Part shown: positions 725 to 11,989 of the stretch, one piece after another
Numbering within the stretch: the first letter of the stretch is position 1
Layout: every line of letters starts with the position of its first letter
DNA from: Opitutia bacterium
GTDB taxonomy: Bacteria > Verrucomicrobiota > Verrucomicrobiia > Opitutales > T3Sed10-336
Assembly: GCA_050506795.1 (NCBI GenBank)
Contig: JBJHCF010000074.1
Coordinates: forward strand, 1 to 12,040
Length of the DNA: 12,040 nucleotides
Direction: 5' to 3'
Translations under genes and position numbers: made by a program
Notes under the pieces: model-generated
What the model saw: only the letters and a program-made list of their open reading frames with translations
What the model was told of the DNA's origin: nothing
Database searches by the model: none

Positions 725-1612
725 TCAGAAAACGCATTCTTCGAAGGCTTCGCGGGCGATGGCTGCGTAGAGGATGGATTCGGCGTAGCGGTCGCTTTCT
801 TCGACGAGACCGCCGCCGGCGTCGGGAAAAACCCGGGCGTAGTAGATGGTGGAGGCGAGCAGTTCGGGGGCGAAAATCAAAACGTCGCCCGCTCCCGCGT
901 TGGCTTTGAACCCGGCCATGGCCCGGCGCCACATTTCCTTGAAGTGCGCGAGATAATCGACGCCGACAGCCATTCGGGGGCGCTCCGAGAGGTGTTCGAT
1001 CGGCGCCTGCATAAATCCCGGCGCGGCGATCCGGCCATGGAGGAAACCGGTCCGGTCGAAAATAGGTTGCATGAAATCGAGCCTGGCTTCGAAATCGCCG
1101 TAAACCATCTCCTGCCCGCAATAGTAATGACTGAAATCCCCGTTGAACCGGACTTCCGGAAAGGTTTCGGTCAATCGGACCGTGCGCCAGAGATCCTGGG
1201 TGATCGTCGCCCGGTGGGTTTCGATGAACGCCGGCAGGTCATGCGTCTCCGACGCGGTCAGTGTGGCTTCGACCAGCCGGTGTGCTGTCGCGTCGTCCTC
1301 AATCCCGGTGCCGAGGTGAAGCGTGAGACACGAGTCGCCGCGTTGTTTGTGTTTGGAAAAAACGGTGTCGGCGTCTTCGGGAGCGTCGAGCCGGTCCAGG
1401 CCACAATAGGGCAGGCGGCCGCCCTGGAGCGGTGAATGATCTCCACCGAGCTGCACGCCTTCAAAACCGTCCGCCTCGATCCGCTCCGCAGCCGCGGGCC
1501 AGGCGAGGCCGGATCCAATCGAATGAGACGGCAGGGCGAAAAGCGTATCGAGATTCAAGTAAACCCGGAGTTTGGGTGCGTCCGCGGTTCCGTCGTTCAG
1601 GTATTCGGCCAT
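725..1612 (-). CDS. Xylose-isomerase-like TIM-barrel protein (sugar-phosphate isomerase/epimerase family)
   Basis: 295 aa. Motifs ADGFEGVQ, IETHR, FNGDFSHY, LHGRI and FAPEL fit the E/D/H/E metal-ligand pattern of the xylose isomerase/AP-endonuclease-2 fold. Starts 22 nt after the upstream stop. Substrate unknown. Confidence 0.7.
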   Translation of the reverse strand: MAEYLNDGTADAPKLRVYLNLDTLFALPSHSIGSGLAWPAAAERIEADGFEGVQLGGDHSPLQGGRLPYCGLDRLDAPEDADTVFSKHKQRGDSCLTLHLGTGIEDDATAHRLVEATLTASETHDLPAFIETHRATITQDLWRTVRLTETFPEVRFNGDFSHYYCGQEMVYGDFEARLDFMQPIFDRTGFLHGRIAAPGFMQAPIEHLSERPRMAVGVDYLAHFKEMWRRAMAGFKANAGAGDVLIFAPELLASTIYYARVFPDAGGGLVEESDRYAESILYAAIAREAFEECVF

Positions 1613-1634: not shown

Positions 1635-3932
1635 TTAGAATTCGTCGAAAGCGATTTGATCCGGCGTGACGCCGAGTTTTTGCGTGAGCATTTTGGTGCA
1701 TGCTTTGATCATCATCGGTGGACCGCACAGGTAAAATTCGACCGCATTCAAGTTGGGATGGGTTTCCAGGTAGTGGATCAGGACGACTTCGTGGATAAAA
1801 CCGGTCAATCCGGTCCACCGGTCTTCGTCGAGGGGATCCGAGAGCGCGAAATGGAAGTCGAAGTTCGGGTGTTCCGCCGCCAGTTTCTCGAAATAGTCCG
1901 TGTAGAAAAGTTCCTGTTTGGAACGGGCGCCGTACCAATAACTGACCTTGCGGGCGGTTTTCTCGTTCTCGAAGAGGTGGGAAATGTGAGCCCGCAGGGG
2001 AGCCATGCCGGCGCCGCCGCCAATGTAAACCATCTCCTTGCGGGTCGGTTTGATGTGGAAATCCCCGAAAGGGCCGATGGCGGTCACGGTATCGCCCGGT
2101 TTGAGGCTGAAGACGTAGCTGGAACCGATCCCCGGGAGACAATCCTGCCCCGGTGGCGGCGTGGCGATGCGAACGTTGAACCTCAATTGGCGTTCGGTGT
2201 GAAGGTTGCTGGCGATCGAATAGTTGTTGCGGCGTCCCGTTTCGGGATTGCCGACGGTCAGGTCGAAGACATGCTGGCGTTCCCAAACGGCGGCGTACGG
2301 CTCGGGAATGTCGAAGTCGCGGAACCGGATTTGGTCGTACGCGGGGATGTCCAACTGGATGTAGTCACCCGGGGTGAAATCGATCCTTTCCTCGGGATCG
2401 ACCGGCTCCAGGACCAATTCCTTGATAAAGGTGGAGACGTTGCTGTTGCTCACCACGCGAAGCGTGTACGTCTTTTGGTGTCGTGCTCCATCGCCGCCCG
2501 GGTTCTGGATATTGAGCCGGATACGCCCATTGCGCTCTTCGATGGGGTACGTTGCGAGACCCCGGCAGACGGGGGCGCGGGCGGGAGAACCGTCGGCAAG
2601 ATTAAAGCGACCGTTGTGCTTCGGGCACTCGATGATTTTTCCCTTTACCAAACCGTCCGAGAGATGGGTGTTGCCGTGGGTGCAGACGCCGTCGGTGGCG
2701 TATAAAAGACCCTCGGCATCGCGACACAAGGCGAACGTCTTTTTGCCGTGATCGAAGCGGATGACATCTTCCGGTCCGAGATCGGCGCCGGCGCAAATCT
2801 CCAGCCACCCTGCGGCGTCGGGAGAAGCGTCGGAGCGGTGGCCGGATTCCTGCGAGTGTTCTTTCGACGGCGGAAGTTTCCGTTTCACGTGGTAGGTCGG
2901 ATCCTTCACCTGCTTGAGCACGGCCGGGATGATCTCTTTCCAGGCGGCGAAGAGACTTGGGTAGGGTTCGGGCATGTCGTCTTTGACGGCGTCGTGCAGT
3001 TTTGGCAAGGCGTGGTATGGAACAAGCGGAAACATGTGATGCTCCACATGGTAATTCATGTTCCAATACAAAAACCGGTGAATCGGATTCATGTAAACCG
3101 TCCGGCAATTTAGGCGGTGGTCGAGAACGTTCTCGGCCAGGCCGGCGTGCTGCGTGTACCCGTAGATCGGCATCAGCCAGGCTCCGAAAAGATTGCAGCC
3201 GCCGACCAGGAGGATCGGGAGAATGCTTCCCGTGTAGACGCTGAGTGCTATCACGGCGGCGTAGATGGCGACGTAAATGCGGGCCCGGCGGTACACCTTG
3301 GGGAATTCGCTCTCGGGAATGAACGTCTTTTCGTCCTCCGACATCTTTCCGAAGCTGTGCAGGACGATCGATTTAAAGTAGGTGAAGTAGACTTTCCAGT
3401 TGATGAAACTGAGGATCAGCGCCCTGATATTCGGCGGGCGAGGGACGGCGATTTCCGGGTCCCGGCCGACGATTATGGTGTCGCTGTGGTGGCGGGTGTG
3501 GCTCCAGCGCCAGACGGTCGATTCGCGCATCACCATGAACGAGGCGATTTCATAGAGCCAGTTGTTCATCCAATCGGTTTTGAATGCGGTGCCGTGTCCG
3601 GCTTCGTGCCAACGGGAATCGGAAGTCGACGCGTAGAGGGCGGCGTAGCACAGATAGGGAAGAACCGCCCACCAGCTTCCCCAGAGCAGAAAGGTCAGGT
3701 AACCGAATCCGACGATCAGCCCGAGCCAGAGGAGGGTGTCCCGAATCGCCGGCCCGTCCTTGCGTACCAGCAGACTGCGCATGGTGGCGCGGGGCACCGG
3801 CGATTGATACCAGTCCGCTTCGGCCAGACCGAGCTCGACCGCTCGTTCGGCGTTCTTTCCGGTCAGACTGTAATCCAGAGTGGAAGGGGGGCGCTGCAGG
3901 GCGGTCGTCCCGTGATCGTGATCGTGGTCCAT
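1635..3932 (-). CDS. Fusion protein: fatty-acid-desaturase-superfamily (MocD-like) di-iron oxygenase + Rieske [2Fe-2S] ferredoxin (MocE-like) + NqrF-like FAD/NADH oxidoreductase
   Basis: Likely start is ATG 3932 (MDHDHDH..., 765 aa); the ORF-track extension to 4202 overlaps galM. His boxes HEAGH, HTRHH, QH and NYHVEHH plus hydrophobic helices (~3932-2880). Rieske CTH...CPKH (~2810-2505). FNR-family reductase with TFIKEL, NVRIATPPP, GPFGDF, IGGGAGMAP, YWYGARS, CGPPMM and terminal FDEF (~2470-1635), closely resembling the NqrF C-terminal domain. Confidence 0.9.
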   Translation of the reverse strand: MDHDHDHGTTALQRPPSTLDYSLTGKNAERAVELGLAEADWYQSPVPRATMRSLLVRKDGPAIRDTLLWLGLIVGFGYLTFLLWGSWWAVLPYLCYAALYASTSDSRWHEAGHGTAFKTDWMNNWLYEIASFMVMRESTVWRWSHTRHHSDTIIVGRDPEIAVPRPPNIRALILSFINWKVYFTYFKSIVLHSFGKMSEDEKTFIPESEFPKVYRRARIYVAIYAAVIALSVYTGSILPILLVGGCNLFGAWLMPIYGYTQHAGLAENVLDHRLNCRTVYMNPIHRFLYWNMNYHVEHHMFPLVPYHALPKLHDAVKDDMPEPYPSLFAAWKEIIPAVLKQVKDPTYHVKRKLPPSKEHSQESGHRSDASPDAAGWLEICAGADLGPEDVIRFDHGKKTFALCRDAEGLLYATDGVCTHGNTHLSDGLVKGKIIECPKHNGRFNLADGSPARAPVCRGLATYPIEERNGRIRLNIQNPGGDGARHQKTYTLRVVSNSNVSTFIKELVLEPVDPEERIDFTPGDYIQLDIPAYDQIRFRDFDIPEPYAAVWERQHVFDLTVGNPETGRRNNYSIASNLHTERQLRFNVRIATPPPGQDCLPGIGSSYVFSLKPGDTVTAIGPFGDFHIKPTRKEMVYIGGGAGMAPLRAHISHLFENEKTARKVSYWYGARSKQELFYTDYFEKLAAEHPNFDFHFALSDPLDEDRWTGLTGFIHEVVLIHYLETHPNLNAVEFYLCGPPMMIKACTKMLTQKLGVTPDQIAFDEF

Positions 3933-3981: not shown

Positions 3982-5037
3982 TCAAACGGTGCCGAAGGCG
4001 TAAATCGTGGTGTGGTGTTGCGGTTGGCCCGGCCGGACCAGTATGTCGCCGAATCCTGTGACATTGGTGGCTTCCGGGTATTCCTCGCATTCCAGGCAAA
4101 ACGCGCCGAATCTTTCGTATGGACGGCCGGCTTTGCCGCGGATGCTGCCATCCAGGCTGCTGCTGAAGAAGGTTTGGAGACAGCTGTTGGTGGTCCGGAC
4201 ATCGAGGACCCGGCCGGTCGATGGATCTTCGATGCGGGCCGCCTGCCTCAGGGTTTTGTCAGTGCCGATCCAATACAAGTCGCCGTGGCTCTGCCACAGG
4301 CCGGGAATGACCGTTCCGAGACGGACCGGTGTGCGCATGTCAGCCGCCCGGCCATCCACCGGTTCGAGGCGGTTGAGAAGCGTCATTGCCTCGTCGGAGG
4401 GAATGATTTGGGAGCTGTAGATTTGAGCCCGGTGGTCGAGGATCGTGCCGTTGCCCTCGCCGGCCAGATTGAAGTAGGAATGGTGGGTGATGCTCGCCGG
4501 AGTGGCCCGGTCCGATTCGACGAAGGTCTCAAAGACGAACTCATTGGCGGCGGTGACGGTGTAGGTCACGGCGACCTTGAGATTGCCCGGGTAACCTTGG
4601 TCCCCGTCCGGACTCTCGCAGCTCAGTTTCAGTGATGGAGCGCCATCGGGCCTCTCGACAGGTTCCGCTTTCCAGACTCGGGTATGCAATGCTCCGGGAC
4701 CGCCATGGAGGTGATTTGGGGGGTTATTGACCGGAAGCTGGAATGCCTCGGAGCCGAATTTCAACGTTCCCCCGGCGATCCGGCCCGCGACCCGTCCTAT
4801 CGTGGCGCCAAAGTAAGCAGGATTTTCCAGGTACGGTTCGAGATCCGGATACCCCAGGACCAGATCGGCAAACGAGCCGTTCCGGTCGGGAGCGGCCAAC
4901 CGGCGGACGATCCCCCCGAGGGTAAGGATTTCGAGCTCGAGGCCACCCGCGCCCTTCAGAGTCCAGGCTTCAACGGATTGGCCGTTGGGCATGGTACCAA
5001 AGTTTGCGGATCGCGATTGGGCATGGGTCTCGATCAT
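3982..5037 (-). CDS. galM: Aldose 1-epimerase (mutarotase)
   Basis: 351 aa. Motifs DLVLGY, YFGATIGRVAGRI, NHLHGG, DGDQGYPGNL, HHSYFNLAG and FCLE (catalytic His and Glu retained). Confidence 0.92.
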   Translation of the reverse strand: MIETHAQSRSANFGTMPNGQSVEAWTLKGAGGLELEILTLGGIVRRLAAPDRNGSFADLVLGYPDLEPYLENPAYFGATIGRVAGRIAGGTLKFGSEAFQLPVNNPPNHLHGGPGALHTRVWKAEPVERPDGAPSLKLSCESPDGDQGYPGNLKVAVTYTVTAANEFVFETFVESDRATPASITHHSYFNLAGEGNGTILDHRAQIYSSQIIPSDEAMTLLNRLEPVDGRAADMRTPVRLGTVIPGLWQSHGDLYWIGTDKTLRQAARIEDPSTGRVLDVRTTNSCLQTFFSSSLDGSIRGKAGRPYERFGAFCLECEEYPEATNVTGFGDILVRPGQPQHHTTIYAFGTV

Positions 5038-5166: not shown

Positions 5167-6738
5167 TCAGCGGTCGTGATCGAGCGGATCCAGGGGCATG
5201 CAATCGATGAAGTGGTCTTCGAAGGACTCGACCTGGTTGAGTTCGATTACCCGGGCGTTGGCGCGGAGCGTCTCAATGGCGGATTCGTTTTCGGATTGCA
5301 GCATCAGTGAGGCCCCGCCGAGGGAAGCGTTGCCGATCACCCTGAGTCGGTCAAACGGGACGTTGGGAAGCATTCCGACCGCCATGGCGTGTTTGCGGTC
5401 GAGGTGATAGCCGAAGCCGCCGGCGATGAAGATCGTTTCCAAATCGTCCGGCCGGAGATCGGCCACTTCCAACAGGGTCGTCACGCCGGCGGCAATGGCG
5501 GCTTTGGCTTGGATAAGTTCCGCGACGTCGGATTCGGAGACAAAGAGCCGGCTGTGGATCGTCACCCGGCATTCCGGTCCGTCGGGACCTGCGCGTGTTT
5601 CGACTTCGGGATGGTTCGACTCGAATCGTCCCATTGCGTTGAGCAGGCCTTCCGTCCGGGCGAGGGCAAGGAAGTCGACGTAGGCCGCTCCCGATATCGC
5701 CGACGGGCGGACTCGTTGTTCGCCGATGGAATGCAGTTGGGACCAGCGGCCGGATTCGCGGGTAAGAGCTGAAATCACGTTTTTGGCGGCCGGGGCGCCG
5801 CAGTTCAGGCGGCCGCCTTCGAAGGCGGGGCCGGCGGCGGTGGCGGTGGCGAGAAAGCCGTCGGCGGTTTTGAGCAGAATTTCGCCGTTGGTGCCGAAAT
5901 CGATCAGGAGAGCCGGGCGTTCGAGTTCCAGAATACCGGAGGCCAAAGCGCCCGCGATGATGTCGGCCCCGACGAACGGTCCGAGACTGCCGGCGAGCAT
6001 GAGGGGGAAATCGGTTGAAAACCCGAGGCTCGCGGAGGGAACGGTGCTGGCTTCGAGGAACTCCGGCTCGAAGGGGTACGAGGCGAAGCCCGATAGCCGG
6101 GCTCCGGTCAGGCTGTGCAGCATCACGGTGTTGCCGGCGGCGATGCCTTCGGTGATTTTCGACGGTTCGACGTCGGCGTTCCGGCAAAGACGGTCGATCA
6201 AAGGTCCGAGAGCGTCCCGGACCAAGGCTGCTTGCAGTTTGGGGCAGGCGCCTCCTTGTGTAACGGCATGATCGATACGGGAAAGGACGTTGTCGCCGTA
6301 GCGCCGTTGTTCGTTGGCGGCGGATCCGCCGGCGAGGCATTTGCCGGTCGCGAGATCCCAGAGCGCGGCGGCGACGGTGGTGGTTCCGATATCGAGAGCC
6401 AGGCCGATGCCGGGCCGGCGGCGAAGCGCATGGGAATGTGTTCCGATCTCGAAGGAACTCACTCCGTTCAGACTTTGGTCACGCACCGACGCCTCGGGGA
6501 TGCGTATCGAGGCCCCGTCGGCCGGGAGCTGGGCGCAGGTGATTTGGCAGGCGCGGCGCGGAGTTCCGTCGACCTCCACCAGGCAGCTTCGGCAAAGTCC
6601 GCGTCCGCCGCAGCGCGTGTTCAGCGGAAGATGTTCCGTTTCGAGCCACTCGGAGAGGATCCGGGATGTGTCGGCTGGAGTGGCGCGGAGGTAACGGCGT
6701 CCATCGGGCATGTCGATGAGAATGTCGGATCGGGACAT
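5167..6738 (-). CDS. ASKHA-domain ATP-dependent reductive activator of corrinoid proteins (RACo/DUF4445) with N-terminal [2Fe-2S] domain
   Basis: 523 aa. N-terminal CGGRGLCRSC...RACQ. ASKHA motifs LDIGTTT, YGDNVLSRI, AGNTVMLH, FVGADI, IDFGTNGEI, AAGPAFEGG, QAKAAIAAG, IAGGFG and GNASLGGA. Context is a corrinoid methyltransferase cluster. Confidence 0.92.
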   Translation of the reverse strand: MSRSDILIDMPDGRRYLRATPADTSRILSEWLETEHLPLNTRCGGRGLCRSCLVEVDGTPRRACQITCAQLPADGASIRIPEASVRDQSLNGVSSFEIGTHSHALRRRPGIGLALDIGTTTVAAALWDLATGKCLAGGSAANEQRRYGDNVLSRIDHAVTQGGACPKLQAALVRDALGPLIDRLCRNADVEPSKITEGIAAGNTVMLHSLTGARLSGFASYPFEPEFLEASTVPSASLGFSTDFPLMLAGSLGPFVGADIIAGALASGILELERPALLIDFGTNGEILLKTADGFLATATAAGPAFEGGRLNCGAPAAKNVISALTRESGRWSQLHSIGEQRVRPSAISGAAYVDFLALARTEGLLNAMGRFESNHPEVETRAGPDGPECRVTIHSRLFVSESDVAELIQAKAAIAAGVTTLLEVADLRPDDLETIFIAGGFGYHLDRKHAMAVGMLPNVPFDRLRVIGNASLGGASLMLQSENESAIETLRANARVIELNQVESFEDHFIDCMPLDPLDHDR

Positions 6739-6742
6739 GACA

Positions 6743-7468
6743 TCAGGGGCGGGCGACGAGGGTGCCGTCGGAATCGGCCTCGATCGAATGATCGGGCGGG
6801 ACGATCAGAAACCGGTCGGAGTGCCAGTCCCGGTTGATGAGCTGGAGGAGAAAGGAAGGATCCGCTTTCAGGCATTGGAATTCCCAGCCCTGGTGGGAGG
6901 CACAGTCGCGGCAATAGTTTTCGGCGGCCGGTTTGTTGAAAATGGAGAGGTAGGCCGCGCGGTTGTGGTGGGCTAAAGCTTCCCGGTCGGCGTCGACCAA
7001 TTCGTCGAGCATCTCCTCGTCGTCGCCGTAACGTTCGGAGTAGAGTTCACGCAGGTGTTGTTCCCGGTCAGGCCCGGGGACGCGTTTTCCGCGGATCCAC
7101 CCTGGCGAGTAGAAATAAGTCCCCGGATTCTTCTTCAGGACGGCGTCGTGCTGAGCTCGTCCGCCGAGCAGGATGGAAATGCAGTCGTGTGCCTGCGGGA
7201 GGATCAGGCGGCAACGTTCCGCCCTGACGCCGAGCAAGCCGTTTCCGCAGCGGCCGTAGGCGAGTAGGATGGTTTGCAGTTGCGGGTGGTCGGCCTCGAG
7301 GGAAGCGATTTGTTGTTGGACTGTTTCCCGAAGTTGGTCCGGCCGGTCGTGGAGTCCCATCTCCAGGAAGACCGCGGCGCACCAGGGAGGGGAGGCTGTT
7401 ACAAAATGGTTGATTTCCTCCTTGAAAACATCGCAGGCGAGTAGGGCGTGATGGCCGGCTGGTTTCAT
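6743..7468 (-). CDS. DUF1638 family protein (associated with corrinoid methyltransferase clusters)
   Basis: Likely start is ATG 7468 (MKPAGHHALLACDVF..., 241 aa), overlapping the upstream stop in ATGA. Motifs ACDVFKEE, LEMGLHDRP, YGRCGNGL, AHDCISILLG and GTYFYSPGW. Confidence 0.85.
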   Translation of the reverse strand: MKPAGHHALLACDVFKEEINHFVTASPPWCAAVFLEMGLHDRPDQLRETVQQQIASLEADHPQLQTILLAYGRCGNGLLGVRAERCRLILPQAHDCISILLGGRAQHDAVLKKNPGTYFYSPGWIRGKRVPGPDREQHLRELYSERYGDDEEMLDELVDADREALAHHNRAAYLSIFNKPAAENYCRDCASHQGWEFQCLKADPSFLLQLINRDWHSDRFLIVPPDHSIEADSDGTLVARP

Positions 7469-8733
7469 GGAGCCGCCATCCCATTGAACTCCCGCACTGC
7501 ATCGAGCATGGCGACGACGTTTTCGGTGGGAGTGCGGGCCTGGATGTTGTGAATGGTGTTGAACACGAACCCGCCGCCCGGGCCGAAAATCCGGCAGCGT
7601 TCGATCACTTCGTCGCGGACCTGCTGTGGGGTGCCGAATGGAAGCGTTTGCTGGGTATTGACGCCTCCGCCCCAGAAGGTGAGGCGGTCGCCGTATTTGT
7701 TTTTCAACAACTGTGGATCCATGCCGTCGGCCGAGCATTGGACCGGATTGATGATATCGAAGCCCGATTCGATAAAACTGTCGAGCAATGGTTCCACGGC
7801 GCCGCAAGAGTGCTTGAAGGTTTTCCAGCGTGTGTTTTGATGGATCCAGTCGTTGATCTTTTTGTAGCGCGGCAGCCAGATCCGTTCATAGGTTTCGACG
7901 CTGCAAAAGAGGGAGGTTTGGGTGCCGAAGTCGGTGCCGCAGACGACCACAACATCAATCACATCGCCCGCAATTTTGTGGAGTTTTTCCATATTGTGAA
8001 TGGCGATCTCGGTCTGCCGATCGAAGATTTTTCCGACGAAATCGGGTTCCTCGGATGTGAGCATGTACCAGTCCGCCACGCCCCGGACTCCCTTGGGATG
8101 GGTCAGAAAAGGGGCGGGAACCAGAGCGATGTCGCCGAGGCCGGTGCCGTTCAGATGGACGGAGACGGCCCGGTCGGAGCCCCGGGAGAGTTCGGCCTGT
8201 TCCTTCCAATACGTTTCCTCCTCCGTCGACATCGGGCCGAACTCTTCGAGATTGTCTTCGAGCTTCAATTCGTCCTCGTCGAAGTCCGGGTCGATTCGCT
8301 CGATGGTGTCAAAGAAGTAGCCGGTCTTGGGCATATGACCGCTGGGCGGGGCGGACCGGTCGCCTTGGGGAAAGATGAAGGTGTTCCCGTGCGGGTCGGT
8401 GGTGGTTTGAAAATGTTTGGAGACCAGCACCTGTTGTCCCCAGGGAGTGGTCCATGGCGTCCAATCCTCGTTGGGAAACCCGAAGATGGTGCGTTGCGGG
8501 AAGATCGGCCGGACATCGATTCCCATGGCGTCGAGCAGGTCTTCCTCGACGACCCCAAGCATCTGGTAGGGCTCGCCGATTTTGACCGGGCGTTCGGTGA
8601 GACCGTAGTGGTGTCGCAAACCTTCGACGACGCTGCAGTGGATGCCGGTGATGAAGGAGCTGCCGAAATCGATCGGGATGCGGTCGGGCTCGCGGTGGTT
8701 GAGACTCTCGATGACGCGTTGTTTGGAAGTCAT
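7465..8733 (-). CDS. Uroporphyrinogen-decarboxylase-fold (URO-D/MtaA-like) corrinoid-dependent methyltransferase
   Basis: 422 aa. N-terminus MTSKQRV...HREPDRIPIDFG, then GTDFGTQ, KHSCG, GFDIINPVQ, LTFWGG, LPFGTP and GGFVFNTIHNIQ. These are typical of bacterial URO-D-family methyltransferases rather than true HemE. Confidence 0.85.
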   Translation of the reverse strand: MTSKQRVIESLNHREPDRIPIDFGSSFITGIHCSVVEGLRHHYGLTERPVKIGEPYQMLGVVEEDLLDAMGIDVRPIFPQRTIFGFPNEDWTPWTTPWGQQVLVSKHFQTTTDPHGNTFIFPQGDRSAPPSGHMPKTGYFFDTIERIDPDFDEDELKLEDNLEEFGPMSTEEETYWKEQAELSRGSDRAVSVHLNGTGLGDIALVPAPFLTHPKGVRGVADWYMLTSEEPDFVGKIFDRQTEIAIHNMEKLHKIAGDVIDVVVVCGTDFGTQTSLFCSVETYERIWLPRYKKINDWIHQNTRWKTFKHSCGAVEPLLDSFIESGFDIINPVQCSADGMDPQLLKNKYGDRLTFWGGGVNTQQTLPFGTPQQVRDEVIERCRIFGPGGGFVFNTIHNIQARTPTENVVAMLDAVREFNGMAAP

Positions 8734-8757
8734 GGGCTGAAGGTGTCGGTGTCAGGT

Positions 8758-10143
8758 TTATGGCTGCGCGGCGAGGTATTCTTCCGGGTTGAATTTGGTG
8801 CGGTCGGATTCTTCGAGCATTTCGTCGATGAACTCGTCCTCGGTGTCGGGCATCTCGTCCAATTCGTCCTCCATGCGTTGGAGCCAGGAGGTTTCGCGGG
8901 GGTCGCTGGGCAGGCAACCCCCTTCGGTGGCTTCGCGAAGGATGGTGATCGCCGTCCGGGCGGCGGCGATGCCGGCGTGGTAGTGAGATTCCGATTCCAC
9001 GATCGATCCGGCGATGCGGACGCTGCTCTCGGGGGAGATGATCAGGGCCTGAGGATCGTGACCGGCATCCGATTTCACCAGCCAGTTGCGCAACGTCAGG
9101 GCCGATTCCTTGCCCTCGCCGGAGGCGCAATTCATCAGGCGGCAGTCGTAGACCAATTGCTCCATGTAGCAAGTGGGGGCCATGCCGGCGAGCAGTTTGA
9201 TGTTCTGGACGGATTCGTTCGACCAAAGATCGGCGGTGGCGGCGGCGAGGTTGCCCATCGGGCTGAGGTGGGCACAGGCGGCGGTTTTCCCTTCCATGCT
9301 CATGGGGCATCCGGTGATCGCCTTGAGGATCGGGTTTTCGTAACCGCAGTCTTTTCCGGGCCCGACGGCACCGCATTCGTAGGCGACGAGGGAGCGGACG
9401 GCGGTGATTGCCCGGACGACGGAGGCAAAGATGCGGGGGATCATTTTCCGTTCCGCCAGGACCATGGCGGTATTGCCGAAGCCACAAGCGGTGTCGCCGG
9501 CGGCGTATGCGCCATGCTTGTTCGCGATTGCGACGATATGATCCCAGAGGAATCGCATGTCCCGCACTCCGAGCACGCACAGCGCAAAAATTACGGCGCG
9601 AAGGTCGCCGTTGACCAGCGCGTCATCGTGCACCTCTTTGCCGCCCACGCTTTCGATGCTGAGGAATTCCGTGCCGGCGGCGGCGGAGCGGTCGAAGAGT
9701 TCGAGCATGGCGTCGAGGTAGCGCCCTCCGCGCATCACCGGGGGCCGGACGAATTCGCGGTTGTCGTTCGGCGTGCAACGCAATGTCGCCCTGAGGCCGT
9801 ACTTGTCGTGGGCGTGTTCGATGCCGTGGAGAAGGATGTCGACCACCTCCATGCCGAGGTCCGGAAACTCGGTCATCGGCGGCAGCGTTTCGAACTCCAG
9901 CATCACGCCGGGAATCTCCAGTTCCGCGGCCCGTTCGAGGGCGCCGGTGACGATCTGTTTGTAATGCCGGGCGATGGCGGGCATCGATTCCTTCCGGATG
10001 TCGATATCGGGTAGGGTGAAGTTGAGCTCCGGATACACGGTTCCCCCGCCGATGACCATGCCGTGGCGGGTGGTGATCGGGTGAGGCGCGTTTCCGTAGA
10101 TCAGGTCGACGGGATTGGAAATGGCGAGTTTGTTGAATGTCAT
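8758..10143 (-). CDS. mtaB: Methanol:corrinoid methyltransferase (MtaB family, MT1)
   Basis: 461 aa, similar along its length to bacterial (acetogen-type) MtaB as recalled: IGGGTVYPELNFTLP, LRCTPND, LSIESVGGKEVHD, GDTACGF, GPGKDCGYE, SMEGKTAACAHLS, WSNESVQN, EQLVYDCRLMN, DPQA. The Glu/Cys/Cys zinc ligands are present. Confidence 0.92.
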   Translation of the reverse strand: MTFNKLAISNPVDLIYGNAPHPITTRHGMVIGGGTVYPELNFTLPDIDIRKESMPAIARHYKQIVTGALERAAELEIPGVMLEFETLPPMTEFPDLGMEVVDILLHGIEHAHDKYGLRATLRCTPNDNREFVRPPVMRGGRYLDAMLELFDRSAAAGTEFLSIESVGGKEVHDDALVNGDLRAVIFALCVLGVRDMRFLWDHIVAIANKHGAYAAGDTACGFGNTAMVLAERKMIPRIFASVVRAITAVRSLVAYECGAVGPGKDCGYENPILKAITGCPMSMEGKTAACAHLSPMGNLAAATADLWSNESVQNIKLLAGMAPTCYMEQLVYDCRLMNCASGEGKESALTLRNWLVKSDAGHDPQALIISPESSVRIAGSIVESESHYHAGIAAARTAITILREATEGGCLPSDPRETSWLQRMEDELDEMPDTEDEFIDEMLEESDRTKFNPEEYLAAQP

Positions 10144-10169
10144 CGGCTGCGTTCGGTGTTAAGAGTCGG

Positions 10170-10802
10170 TTATCCGGCCAGAGCTTCCCGGGCGGCATCG
10201 ACGGCGCTGGCGGCGTCGCGCGAGTAGCCGTCGGCGCCGATTTCCGCCGCATAGGAATCGGTGATCGGCGCGCCTCCGACGAGGATTTTCAGATCGGTGT
10301 GACCGGCGTTGCGGATCGCGGCGACGGTATCCTTCATCGCCGGCATGGTGGTGGTCAGGAGGGCGGAAAGCCCGACCAGGTGCGGTTTGTGTTGGTCGAT
10401 GGCGGCGAGGAAGGCGTCGGCGCTGACGTTGACACCGAGATCGATCACTTCGAACCCGGCTCCCTTCCACATCGTGGCGACGAGATTCTTGCCGATATCG
10501 TGCAAGTCTCCCTCGACGGTACCGATGACGGCGGTGAATTCCGGCTTGATGCCGGCCGCGACCAATTTCGGTTCGATCTCGGTCATCGCCTGCTTCATGG
10601 CGCGCGCGGCGACCAGCATTTCCGGAACGAAGATTTCGTTTCTCTTGAAACGCTCGCCGACGACCGACATGGCGGGAATCAAGGCCTGTTCCAGGATGGC
10701 GGACGGTTCGACGCCGGAGTCGAGGAGGTCCGGCATGATGGCCTTGACCTCTTTGCGTTTGCCGTTGATTACGGCGGTTTTGAGATCTTCGAGTGTGCTC
10801 AT
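10170..10802 (-). CDS. Cobalamin-binding corrinoid protein (MtaC/MtbC/MttC-like methyl carrier)
   Basis: Likely start is ATG 10802 (MSTLEDLK..., 210 aa); the ORF-track extension to 11033 overlaps the regulator. Cap domain (GERF...EIFVPEML) and B12-binding GDLHDIGKNLV (DxHxxG), DLGVNV, GLSALLTTTM, VGGAP, IGADGY. Confidence 0.95.
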   Translation of the reverse strand: MSTLEDLKTAVINGKRKEVKAIMPDLLDSGVEPSAILEQALIPAMSVVGERFKRNEIFVPEMLVAARAMKQAMTEIEPKLVAAGIKPEFTAVIGTVEGDLHDIGKNLVATMWKGAGFEVIDLGVNVSADAFLAAIDQHKPHLVGLSALLTTTMPAMKDTVAAIRNAGHTDLKILVGGAPITDSYAAEIGADGYSRDAASAVDAAREALAG

Positions 10803-10871
10803 GACGATGTGTGGTGGACGGACGATTGTTGTCTTGTTTGGATTCCGGACAACGGAACGGTCAATTGGGGC

Positions 10872-10902
10872 AGTATAACCGAAGCCGACCGGTCGGGTCT
10901 TG
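10872..10902 (-). promoter_or_regulatory. Putative activator-dependent sigma70 promoter of the methyltransferase operon (CAAGAC-N19-TATACT)
   Basis: Near-consensus -10 TATACT (10877-10872) with no consensus -35, as expected for AraC-activated promoters. A perfect 12-bp palindrome CCGACCGGTCGG (10885-10896) lies in the spacer. Confidence 0.45.
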
Positions 10903-10918
10903 TAATCCGAGCTGGTTT

Positions 10919-11989
10919 TCAGGTACACACGTGTTTTTTGCCGGTTCGGACCCGTTTTCGGTAGTCCCCCGGAGACAGGGTTAGCGCGGCGCGGAAGGTT
11001 TTGTTGAAATGGCTTTGATCGTAGAATCCGCATTCGGCGCCGATCTCGGCGAGGCTCTTGTCGGTGCGGGCCAGCAATTCTTTGGCTTTGTTGACCCGCA
11101 TCTGGGAAAGCAGGTGGGAAAAGGAACGGCCCATCCGTTCGGTGACCAGCTTGCTGAAGTGACTTGGTGAAACGCCGGCGACGCGGGCCACATCGTCGCG
11201 GCGCAGGTGCTGGTGAAGGTTGGCCTGCATGTGGCGGATGGCTCGCAGGAGCAGAACGGAGTGGGGAAATTCGTGATTGCCGCGGATGCAGTCGATCAGC
11301 GTTTCCAGCATACGCCGAACCCAGGTGGAAAGATCCTCTTCGTCCTCGATTTCAGAGAGTTCCGTCAGAGAGCGGTAGTTGCTGCCAAGCGCGGTGGATG
11401 GTTCGGCGCCGGCTTCGACCGCGGCGCGATTCATCATGACGATCAGTTCGAGGACGCTGCTCTTTAAAAGATCCATGCGGTCTCCGGCGAGGGCGTAAAT
11501 CGCCGTAAGGATCCGGTTCAGGATGGATCGGGCGCGTTGGGTGTCGCTCTCTTTGATGGCGGCAAGCAAGTCGGGTTCCTCGTCCAGGTAGATGCTGCGC
11601 AAATCGTCGCTGACGGAATCTTTTTTGGCCGCTTCGATAGCATAGAAGCGGTCGCTTTCACGGGCGGCGCGTTGGCGGGCCAGTTCGACGGCGGCTCGCG
11701 GGAGAAGATTCTCGCGCAGGGCGAGTTTGAGGAGGGCGCCGGCCGCGTGTTGGACCCGGCCAGGCAGGTCCGGAGCGCCGGTTTCGAGATCGATGCCCTG
11801 GACAATCAAGGCTCCCTTGAGCGCATTGTTGTCCATGATCGGGACACCCCACATCGCGTAGCCGTTGTCGCAGCAGAGGTTGATCACCGTCTCTCCCCAG
11901 TAGAGGGTTTGCTCGGCGGCCTGGAGGCGGCGGCGTTGATTCTGCGACCGGCAGAAGCAATCGGTTCGGGGCTGGCCGCCGGCGACCAC
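10919..11989 (-). CDS. AraC-family transcriptional regulator with Cys-containing PocR-like N-terminal sensor (start uncertain)
   Basis: C-terminal double HTH: LRRDDVARVAGVSPSHFSKL...RVNKAKELL...LAEIGAECGFYDQSHFNKTFR...SPGDYR. N-terminal DCFC...NLCCDNGY..WGVPIM....KGALIV resembles a PocR domain. Helical middle region ELIVMMNRAAVEAGA. An in-frame TAA at 12017-12019 limits upstream extension. Confidence 0.88.
   Translation of the reverse strand: MVAGGQPRTDCFCRSQNQRRRLQAAEQTLYWGETVINLCCDNGYAMWGVPIMDNNALKGALIVQGIDLETGAPDLPGRVQHAAGALLKLALRENLLPRAAVELARQRAARESDRFYAIEAAKKDSVSDDLRSIYLDEEPDLLAAIKESDTQRARSILNRILTAIYALAGDRMDLLKSSVLELIVMMNRAAVEAGAEPSTALGSNYRSLTELSEIEDEEDLSTWVRRMLETLIDCIRGNHEFPHSVLLLRAIRHMQANLHQHLRRDDVARVAGVSPSHFSKLVTERMGRSFSHLLSQMRVNKAKELLARTDKSLAEIGAECGFYDQSHFNKTFRAALTLSPGDYRKRVRTGKKHVCT

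Follow-up and report, generated by a model that had tools for sequence, protein, structure and literature searches.

A single-chain fusion of MocD-like, MocE-like and NqrF-type domains, a candidate sugar O-demethylase of three bacterial phyla

Methyl ethers block the catabolism of sugars, and in the available text of the papers we found, the only system reported to cleave them on a free sugar is the cytochrome P450 system of marine Bacteroidota, which consists of three proteins. As the accessible parts of two reports describe it, a P450, a ferredoxin and a reductase oxidatively demethylate 6-O-methyl-D-galactose, with galactose and formaldehyde as products (PMC6292453, PMC10033563). Another relevant system is MocD, MocE and MocF of rhizobia; in the source text at hand, rhizobial MocD relatives act on 3-O-methyl-scyllo-inosamine, as characterized by genetics, and the accessible part of a published list gives the pSymB copy of S. 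meliloti as mocD, mocE and mocF (SM_b20818-20820). Here we describe a gene at positions 1635-3932 on the minus strand of a stretch of DNA from an Opitutia bacterium (assembly GCA_050506795.1, contig JBJHCF010000074.1, 1-12,040 of the forward strand); the whole 12,040-nt stretch is referred to below as the window. The predicted protein places a MocD-like membrane oxygenase, a MocE-like Rieske ferredoxin and an NqrF-like flavin adenine dinucleotide (FAD)/NADH reductase in a single chain, and it is a candidate self-sufficient O-demethylase of methylated sugars. Literature searches found no paper on the fused protein.

Architecture and distribution of the fused protein

The gene consists of a 765-codon open reading frame (ORF) with no internal stop, and its product begins MDHDHDHG. 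The longest minus-strand frame at the locus runs from an ATG at 4202 to 1635, but the part before 3932 would overlap an aldose-epimerase gene at 3982-5037, and the start at 3932 is therefore the sensible one. Residues 1-373 (2814..3932) form the membrane di-iron oxygenase domain, which contains a Pfam FA_desaturase match (PF00487, residues 86-329, E 1.5e-36, 126.9 bits against a cut-off of 29.7) and is assigned to the MocD type by identity and by its position in a tree. Residues 373-476 (2505..2816) form a Rieske [2Fe-2S] ferredoxin domain, identified by Pfam Rieske (residues 376-463, E 4.4e-16), by identity to MocE and by its ligands. The remaining module, residues 487-765 and the stop codon (1635..2474), is an NqrF-type FAD/NADH reductase of the FNR fold, with Pfam FAD_binding_6 at 559-626, NAD_binding_1 at 637-746, and matches to the NqrF model TIGR01941 and to NqrF structures in the PDB. 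All four Pfam domains exceed their gathering scores.

The residues expected to hold the cofactors are present in each domain. The oxygenase domain has three His boxes of the HX3-4H, HX2HH, HX2HH class (HEAGH 109-113, HTRHH 145-149 and HVEHH 295-299), the Rieske ligands are C417-T-H419 and C436-P-K-H439, and the reductase has the NADH loop GGAGMAP at 639-645. Aligning 25 fused homologues showed no variation at any of the eight histidines of the His boxes or at the four Rieske ligands, and the flavin motif N570-Y571-S572, the loop G638-P645 and C736-G737-P738 are likewise invariant. Two long hydrophobic stretches, putative hairpins of the four transmembrane helices expected of the membrane class III di-iron oxygenase/desaturase superfamily, appear as hydropathy peaks at 65-91 and 217-258, and long helices occupy 59-112 and 207-272 in the predicted model. 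The original prediction, made from the sequence alone, of an uninterrupted frame with three His boxes, a Rieske site and an FAD/NADH module is thus borne out by the ORF, the Pfam matches and the motifs.

That prediction had named an assembly artefact as a way in which it might fail. We searched a collection of 5.8 billion proteins, which gave 7,998 scored candidates and 3,774 matches at E <= 0.001, and examined architecture in the best 120. Every one of these 120 relatives has the same Pfam architecture (752-809 aa, 73-100% identity, 98-100% coverage); chance is therefore excluded, and the fusion is not an artefact. On clustering at 50%, the three-domain form reduces to essentially one representative (P0122, 65% identity) together with fragments. 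One fragment, P0138, has the same domain order at 41% identity overall and 32% in the reductase part, and its sequence hints at a deeper branch of the family.

When one genome of each prokaryote species was scanned, 555 stretches proved to encode a relative; the loci described here are the best 80 of these. All 80 carry the fused form at 67-80% identity to the window protein; 47 belong to Verrucomicrobiota, 30 to Acidobacteriota and 3 to Planctomycetota, with a single cultured isolate, Oleiharenicola lentus, among them. At least one full-length copy was present in 25 of 401 genomes sampled from the phylum of the window, which together hold 30 copies, and a few more copies are cut at contig ends. 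The fusion family is real and widespread across the three phyla. Two full-length copies occur in five genomes of the phylum sample, G288 (L032/L040), G234 (L038/L043), G117 (L041/L047), G060 (L042/L051) and G377 (L044/L053), and the members of each pair belong to separate subclades in the N-domain tree described below, which suggests paralogues with different substrates.

Relationship to MocD, MocE and NqrF

A plasmid search with the N-terminal 370 residues returned 283 records, most of them from Rhizobium (145) or Sinorhizobium (85). No record reached 60% identity, and in 272 the alignment spans 80% or more of the query. In all four rhizobial plasmid loci that we opened, a desaturase-family gene, a gene for a MocE-family or Rieske 2Fe-2S ferredoxin and a gene for an FAD-dependent oxidoreductase stand next to one another as three separate genes, as the original prediction had stated for MocD, MocE and MocF. 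BLASTP relates the N-terminal parts of the fusion to the first two: rhizobial MocD and MocD-like proteins (n=4) align end to end with residues 17/20-365/373 at 55-56% identity, and rhizobial MocE aligns end to end with residues 373-476 at 48-52%. The 410-aa rhizobial MocF gave nothing better than E 5.8. The fusion is therefore MocD joined directly to MocE and followed by a different reductase.

One of the opened loci, L064 on a plasmid of R. leguminosarum bv. viciae, also encodes IolE, a sugar-binding protein and two proteins of the Gfo/Idh/MocA type, and looks like the rhizopine moc locus. In two others (L063 and L065), the mocDEF-like cluster is followed by a gene for a PanB-like 3-methyl-2-oxobutanoate hydroxymethyltransferase, which itself lies beside a sugar-related gene; the flanks of L063 also hold FolD, PurU, iolG and a sugar ABC transporter. 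PanB-like and one-carbon (C1) folate genes beside these oxygenases fit the release of a C1 unit or formaldehyde.

Related genes were also seen in other arrangements. L060 (genome G218) encodes a 487-aa two-domain MocD-Rieske protein, adjoining a gene like those for uroporphyrinogen decarboxylase (URO-D), a further MocD-like gene and a PocR/AraC regulator. In L061 (genome G387), the MocD-like and Rieske frames are separate but adjacent, in the order found in the window. These two loci represent intermediate forms.

We placed the oxygenase domain in a tree of 66 rows, comprising 30 fused, 9 two-domain, 22 one-domain and 4 rhizobial proteins, with the other desaturase of the genome as outgroup. 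The two-domain rows were 8 of 150 listed representatives and the 487-aa form of L060, and the one-domain rows were 20 from the same list and one each from L060 and L061. The tree comes from a quick search, carries support values of the Shimodaira-Hasegawa-like approximate likelihood ratio test (SH-aLRT) only, and has several long branches flagged. The fused proteins and two apparent two-domain rows form one clade (SH-aLRT 99), which is sister (SH-aLRT 90) to a clade containing all four rhizobial MocD proteins.

This placement bears on whether the protein could instead desaturate or hydroxylate acyl lipids, with its electron donors built in. Such a function would suit the membership of the N-terminal domain in Pfam FA_desaturase and a weak match to the bacterial DesB lipid-desaturase model (26.6 bits against a cut-off of 500). 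Clustering with lipid desaturases was the other way in which the original prediction might have failed; the domain groups instead with rhizobial MocD, and the other FA_desaturase of the genome lies far outside the MocD and fused clades on a very long branch, too distant for BLASTP to detect at E 1e-3. The nearest relatives are MocD proteins of sugar or inositol operons, and no lipid-metabolism family recurs among the neighbours of the fusion. Taken together, these observations make a lipid substrate very improbable.

The reductase was expected to be NqrF-like, and solved FAD domains of NqrF in the PDB match it at E 2e-84, compared with 3.5e-18 for the best reductase of any other kind. Real NqrF genes of the same phylum (ORFs of ~410-450 aa) encode proteins with 49-57% identity to residues 487-765, and the GGGAGMAP, CGPPxM and C-terminal DEF (D-E/D-F) motifs of NqrF align with the module. 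NqrF (TIGR01941; PDB 7qu3 and 8a1t, chain F) and the fusion thus share a homologous FAD/NADH module in which the motifs are kept. They differ at the flavin motif: RAYS (RxYS) of NqrF reads RRNNYS in the main fused group, with a one-residue insertion (residues 567-572, nt ~2217-2234), and RR-NYS in a side group (L054). They also differ in what precedes the module. The TIGR01941 match (339.1 bits against a cut-off of 295) is confined to model positions 128-403 of 405, and positions 1-127, the transmembrane (TM) helix and plant-type 2Fe-2S part of NqrF, are unmatched; Pfam finds no Fer2 domain in the fusion, and the Rieske domain stands at that position. The original prediction had proposed that the FAD domain of NqrF was recruited as the reductase of the oxygenase.

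A reductase tree of 44 rows groups the fused domains in a single clade (SH-aLRT 99), apart from NqrF-type proteins of 405-437 aa, which make up an unresolved polytomy. The three phyla, with Acidobacteriaceae and Phycisphaerae (L103, L146, L147) among the carriers, are intermixed within the fused clade, and this, at 67-80% identity, suggests horizontal transfer of the whole gene or module. On nearest-relative evidence only, the reductase probably derives from NqrF.

A reading of the whole protein as subunit F of the Na+-translocating NADH:quinone reductase, as databases have it, draws on the above-threshold TIGR01941 score and on source names. Mislabelling had been foreseen: among the best 120 relatives, 36 carry source names, 27 of them 'NqrF' and 9 'MocE subfamily Rieske', and none names the oxygenase domain. 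A profile search of the genome, which is 97.8% complete, found no NqrA (TIGR01936), no NqrB (TIGR01937) and no second TIGR01941 match above the cut-off. With neither NqrA nor NqrB in the genome, the 'NqrF' label is wrong. The missing TM/2Fe-2S part, the 486 residues of oxygenase and Rieske domains that precede the reductase, and the separate clade likewise refute the whole-protein assignment, and we give it next to no chance of being correct. The result would correct a systematic annotation error, the use of 'NqrF' names in genomes without Na+-NQR.

Neighboring genes

In the window, the fusion lies between two genes on its own strand. The aldose 1-epimerase gene (GalM family, 3982..5037, minus strand; Pfam Aldose_epim, E 8.5e-58) is 49 nt upstream, and a gene for a 295-aa protein (725..1612, minus strand), predicted to be a xylose-isomerase-like triosephosphate isomerase (TIM) barrel, is 22 nt downstream. 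The 295-aa protein has no Pfam or NCBIfam match. Its predicted model is of good quality (predicted local distance difference test, pLDDT, 86.8; predicted template modeling score, pTM, 0.88), and Foldseek relates it to sugar epimerases, isomerases and IolE at a level that indicates distant similarity (E ~1e-6, TM-score 0.5-0.59). BLASTP of this protein against the rhizobial 'TIM barrel protein' and PanB-like protein gave no similarity, and against the other ~300-aa downstream family it gave only E 0.023.

Neighbors were counted within four genes of the fusion at 28 loci of the phylum sample, 80 loci of the genome scan and the window, leaving, with three duplicates removed, 105 non-redundant loci of three phyla. 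The ORF caller, weighted by G+C content at third codon positions, misses some genes (e.g. DUF1638 in the window), and the counts are lower bounds. An AraC regulator, usually divergent and upstream of the fusion, was found at 34 loci. GalM was present at 32, and at 29 of these it is the next gene upstream in the same orientation. The 295-aa TIM barrel was present at 25 and follows the fusion directly, again on its strand, at 24. A URO-D-like methyltransferase homologue occurs at 12 loci, usually upstream on the same strand, and a major facilitator superfamily sugar transporter occurs at 10, in varied positions. Two further families without a Pfam match were seen, one of ~290 aa (8 loci, 7 directly downstream) and one of ~275 aa (6 loci, 5 directly downstream). 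At three loci, L138 included, GalM is replaced by the L-rhamnose mutarotase RhaM, twice directly upstream of the fusion. The module AraC/(URO-D-like)/GalM/fusion/TIM barrel recurs in all three phyla. Wider flanks contain sulfatases, rhamnogalacturonan lyases, a glycoside hydrolase family 78 (GH78) rhamnosidase, a fucosidase, alpha- and beta-galactosidases, RhaT and an FGGY kinase. A mutarotase is the tightest partner, which suggests that a free aldose is either the substrate or the product.

The same neighborhoods bear on whether the protein might use the same electron chain to demethylate an O-methyl cyclitol, as rhizobia do, for instance pinitol or an O-methyl-inosamine. Gfo/Idh/MocA oxidoreductases paired with AP_endonuc_2 TIM barrels, the protein types of IolG and IolE, occur in the wider flanks of several fused loci, and IolE is among the top structural matches of the 295-aa neighbor (TM-score 0.57-0.59). 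Such pairs are not specific to inositol catabolism, which lessens their weight. The closest genetically characterized relatives, as far as the text at hand describes them, use 3-O-methyl-scyllo-inosamine, and they sit with iolE or iolG. Against a cyclitol stands the commonest partner itself: mutarotases, whether GalM or RhaM, act on the anomeric carbon of an aldose, a feature that cyclitols do not have. We consider a cyclitol substrate unlikely.

The rhamnose- and fucose-related neighbors (RhaM, RhaT, the GH78 rhamnosidase and the fucosidase) might instead suggest some other sugar oxidation, or hydroxylation at a C-methyl group (the C6 methyl of rhamnose or fucose would be an example) or at another C-H position of the sugar. 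Precedent comes from class III di-iron enzymes such as AlkB, which hydroxylate terminal methyl groups according to the available part of one review (PMC8918992). Rhamnose-linked loci are far fewer than GalM-linked ones, and the 55-56% identity to MocD across the whole catalytic domain argues for conserved chemistry. This alternative seems to us more doubtful still than a cyclitol substrate.

Upstream of GalM in the window, and on the same strand as the fusion, is a corrinoid methyltransferase set (5167..11033, minus strand). It comprises the activase RACo (5167-6738), DUF1638 (~6743-7450; longest frame 6743-7807), an MtaA/CmuC-like URO-D protein (7465-8733), MtaB (8758-10143) and an MtaC-like corrinoid protein (10170-11033), all on the minus strand. 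An AraC-family regulator (10919..11989, minus strand; Pfam HTH_18 and HTH_AraC) heads the row, with a weak match to the NCBIfam PocR model (67 bits against a cut-off of 500). Taken at their longest frames, the MtaC-like and DUF1638 genes run into their upstream neighbors, AraC and URO-D respectively; the Pfam matches in these frames start at residues 81 and 147, and the true starts are probably further in. The URO-D-like protein has no PDB sequence match at E 0.01, and its Atlas entries carry automatic names only, 'CmuC' or URO-D. An Rfam scan found no family at gathering score, and promoter and terminator scans gave 2 and 17 hits, not above the 2.7 and 12.9 of shuffled sequences.

Genomes G288 (L040) and G098 (L055) have the same corrinoid set beside the fusion, and so does an acidobacterial metagenome-assembled genome (L124), where the gene order is also that of the window. 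MtaB was found in 26 of the 401 phylum genomes, 6 of the 25 with a full-length fusion and 20 of the 376 others, counts that come from related genomes and not from independent ones; it adjoins the fusion in three genomes. Where the URO-D-like/GalM/fusion module is present, four of five genomes have MtaB, and in one it is ~7 kb away, apparently on the same contig as judged by contig number and coordinates. An obligate partnership was rejected, as 20 of the 26 MtaB-bearing phylum genomes have no full-length fusion. The link between the corrinoid genes and the fusion is recurrent, not obligate, and the corrinoid system may act without oxygen on the same methyl group, or on methanol.

Proposed reaction and comparison with known systems

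We favor, with a probability of roughly 0.6, a self-sufficient membrane monooxygenase that most likely carries out O2-dependent O-demethylation of a free, cytoplasmic methylated sugar. We infer what the substrate is, how it is converted and in which order electrons move; O-demethylation is proposed because of the homology to rhizobial MocD and MocE and because of the neighboring genes. NADH would reduce FAD in the C-terminal NqrF-type module, and the Rieske [2Fe-2S] domain would accept electrons singly and hand them on to the His-box di-iron center in the N-terminal membrane domain, probably of four helices, where O2 would be activated. The di-iron center would then hydroxylate an O-methyl group on the sugar, and collapse of the resulting hemiacetal would yield the demethylated sugar and formaldehyde. 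The adjacent mutarotase and TIM-barrel enzyme could process the sugar further.

Several observations weigh against this proposal. GalM is absent within four genes at 73 of the 105 loci, sugar-related neighbors are found in about a third of them, and at several the fusion lies among unrelated housekeeping genes. No obvious formaldehyde-detoxification gene recurs beside the fusion in the loci surveyed. The Rieske domain scores 113.1 bits with TIGR02377 (MocE family), under the cut-off of 136.15, with model positions 2-101 of 101 covered. The full-length AlphaFold model (pLDDT 76.4, pTM 0.56, His-box segments below pLDDT 50) is uninformative on domain docking. Finally, the demethylase role of rhizobial MocDEF is based, in the available text, on genetic models and annotation and not on enzymology.

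If O-demethylation is the true function, it would explain how polysaccharide degraders in soil, fresh water and saline habitats, from three phyla, deal with methylated sugars. The protein would also offer a simple one-gene, NADH-driven membrane biocatalyst and a natural system in which to study how a Rieske center supplies electrons to a membrane di-iron site. A more ambitious proposal is that Verrucomicrobiota, Acidobacteriota and Planctomycetota that degrade polysaccharides rely on this family as their main O2-dependent demethylase of methyl-ether sugars, one with no relationship to the P450, the only such enzyme known. In some genomes, the window included, the fusion stands in a same-strand row, possibly an AraC-controlled operon, with a full set of MtaB, MtaC, MtaA-like and RACo genes, and the row would then provide O2-dependent and O2-independent routes for the same methyl group. 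We put this forward tentatively, as speculation that has a modest chance of being right.

As a functional analogue of the fusion we propose the P450 system of marine Bacteroidota, which in the accessible text likewise removes a methyl ether from a free sugar in an O2- and NADH-dependent reaction that yields formaldehyde (PMC6292453, PMC10033563). The catalysts are unrelated, the P450 being a soluble heme enzyme in a three-protein system, and activity was demonstrated there (PMC6292453, PMC10033563), whereas for the fusion it is predicted. In organization, the closest parallel is ferr_ferrR_AlkB, which the available part of a review describes as a class III di-iron oxygenase of the membrane whose electron-transfer partners are all fused to it, and as similarly mis-annotated, under the name of a desaturase or ferredoxin reductase (PMC8918992). 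Compared by description and not by sequence, it differs in having its partners N-terminal, a ferredoxin in place of the Rieske domain, and an alkane substrate (PMC8918992).

By homology, MocDEF is the nearest known system. The oxygenase and Rieske parts correspond end to end, the order is D then E in both, and both the rhizobial system and the fusion occur in loci for sugar or cyclitol catabolism that have a regulator of the sugar type. The hosts differ, and so do the partners: mutarotases and a novel TIM barrel in Verrucomicrobiota, Acidobacteriota and Planctomycetota, iol genes in rhizobia. What rhizobia encode in three genes is here one chain, and the 410-aa FAD-dependent oxidoreductase MocF has no counterpart in it, an NqrF-type FNR module standing in its place. 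On these sequence comparisons, the fusion is novel in being a single chain and in its non-homologous, NqrF-type reductase.

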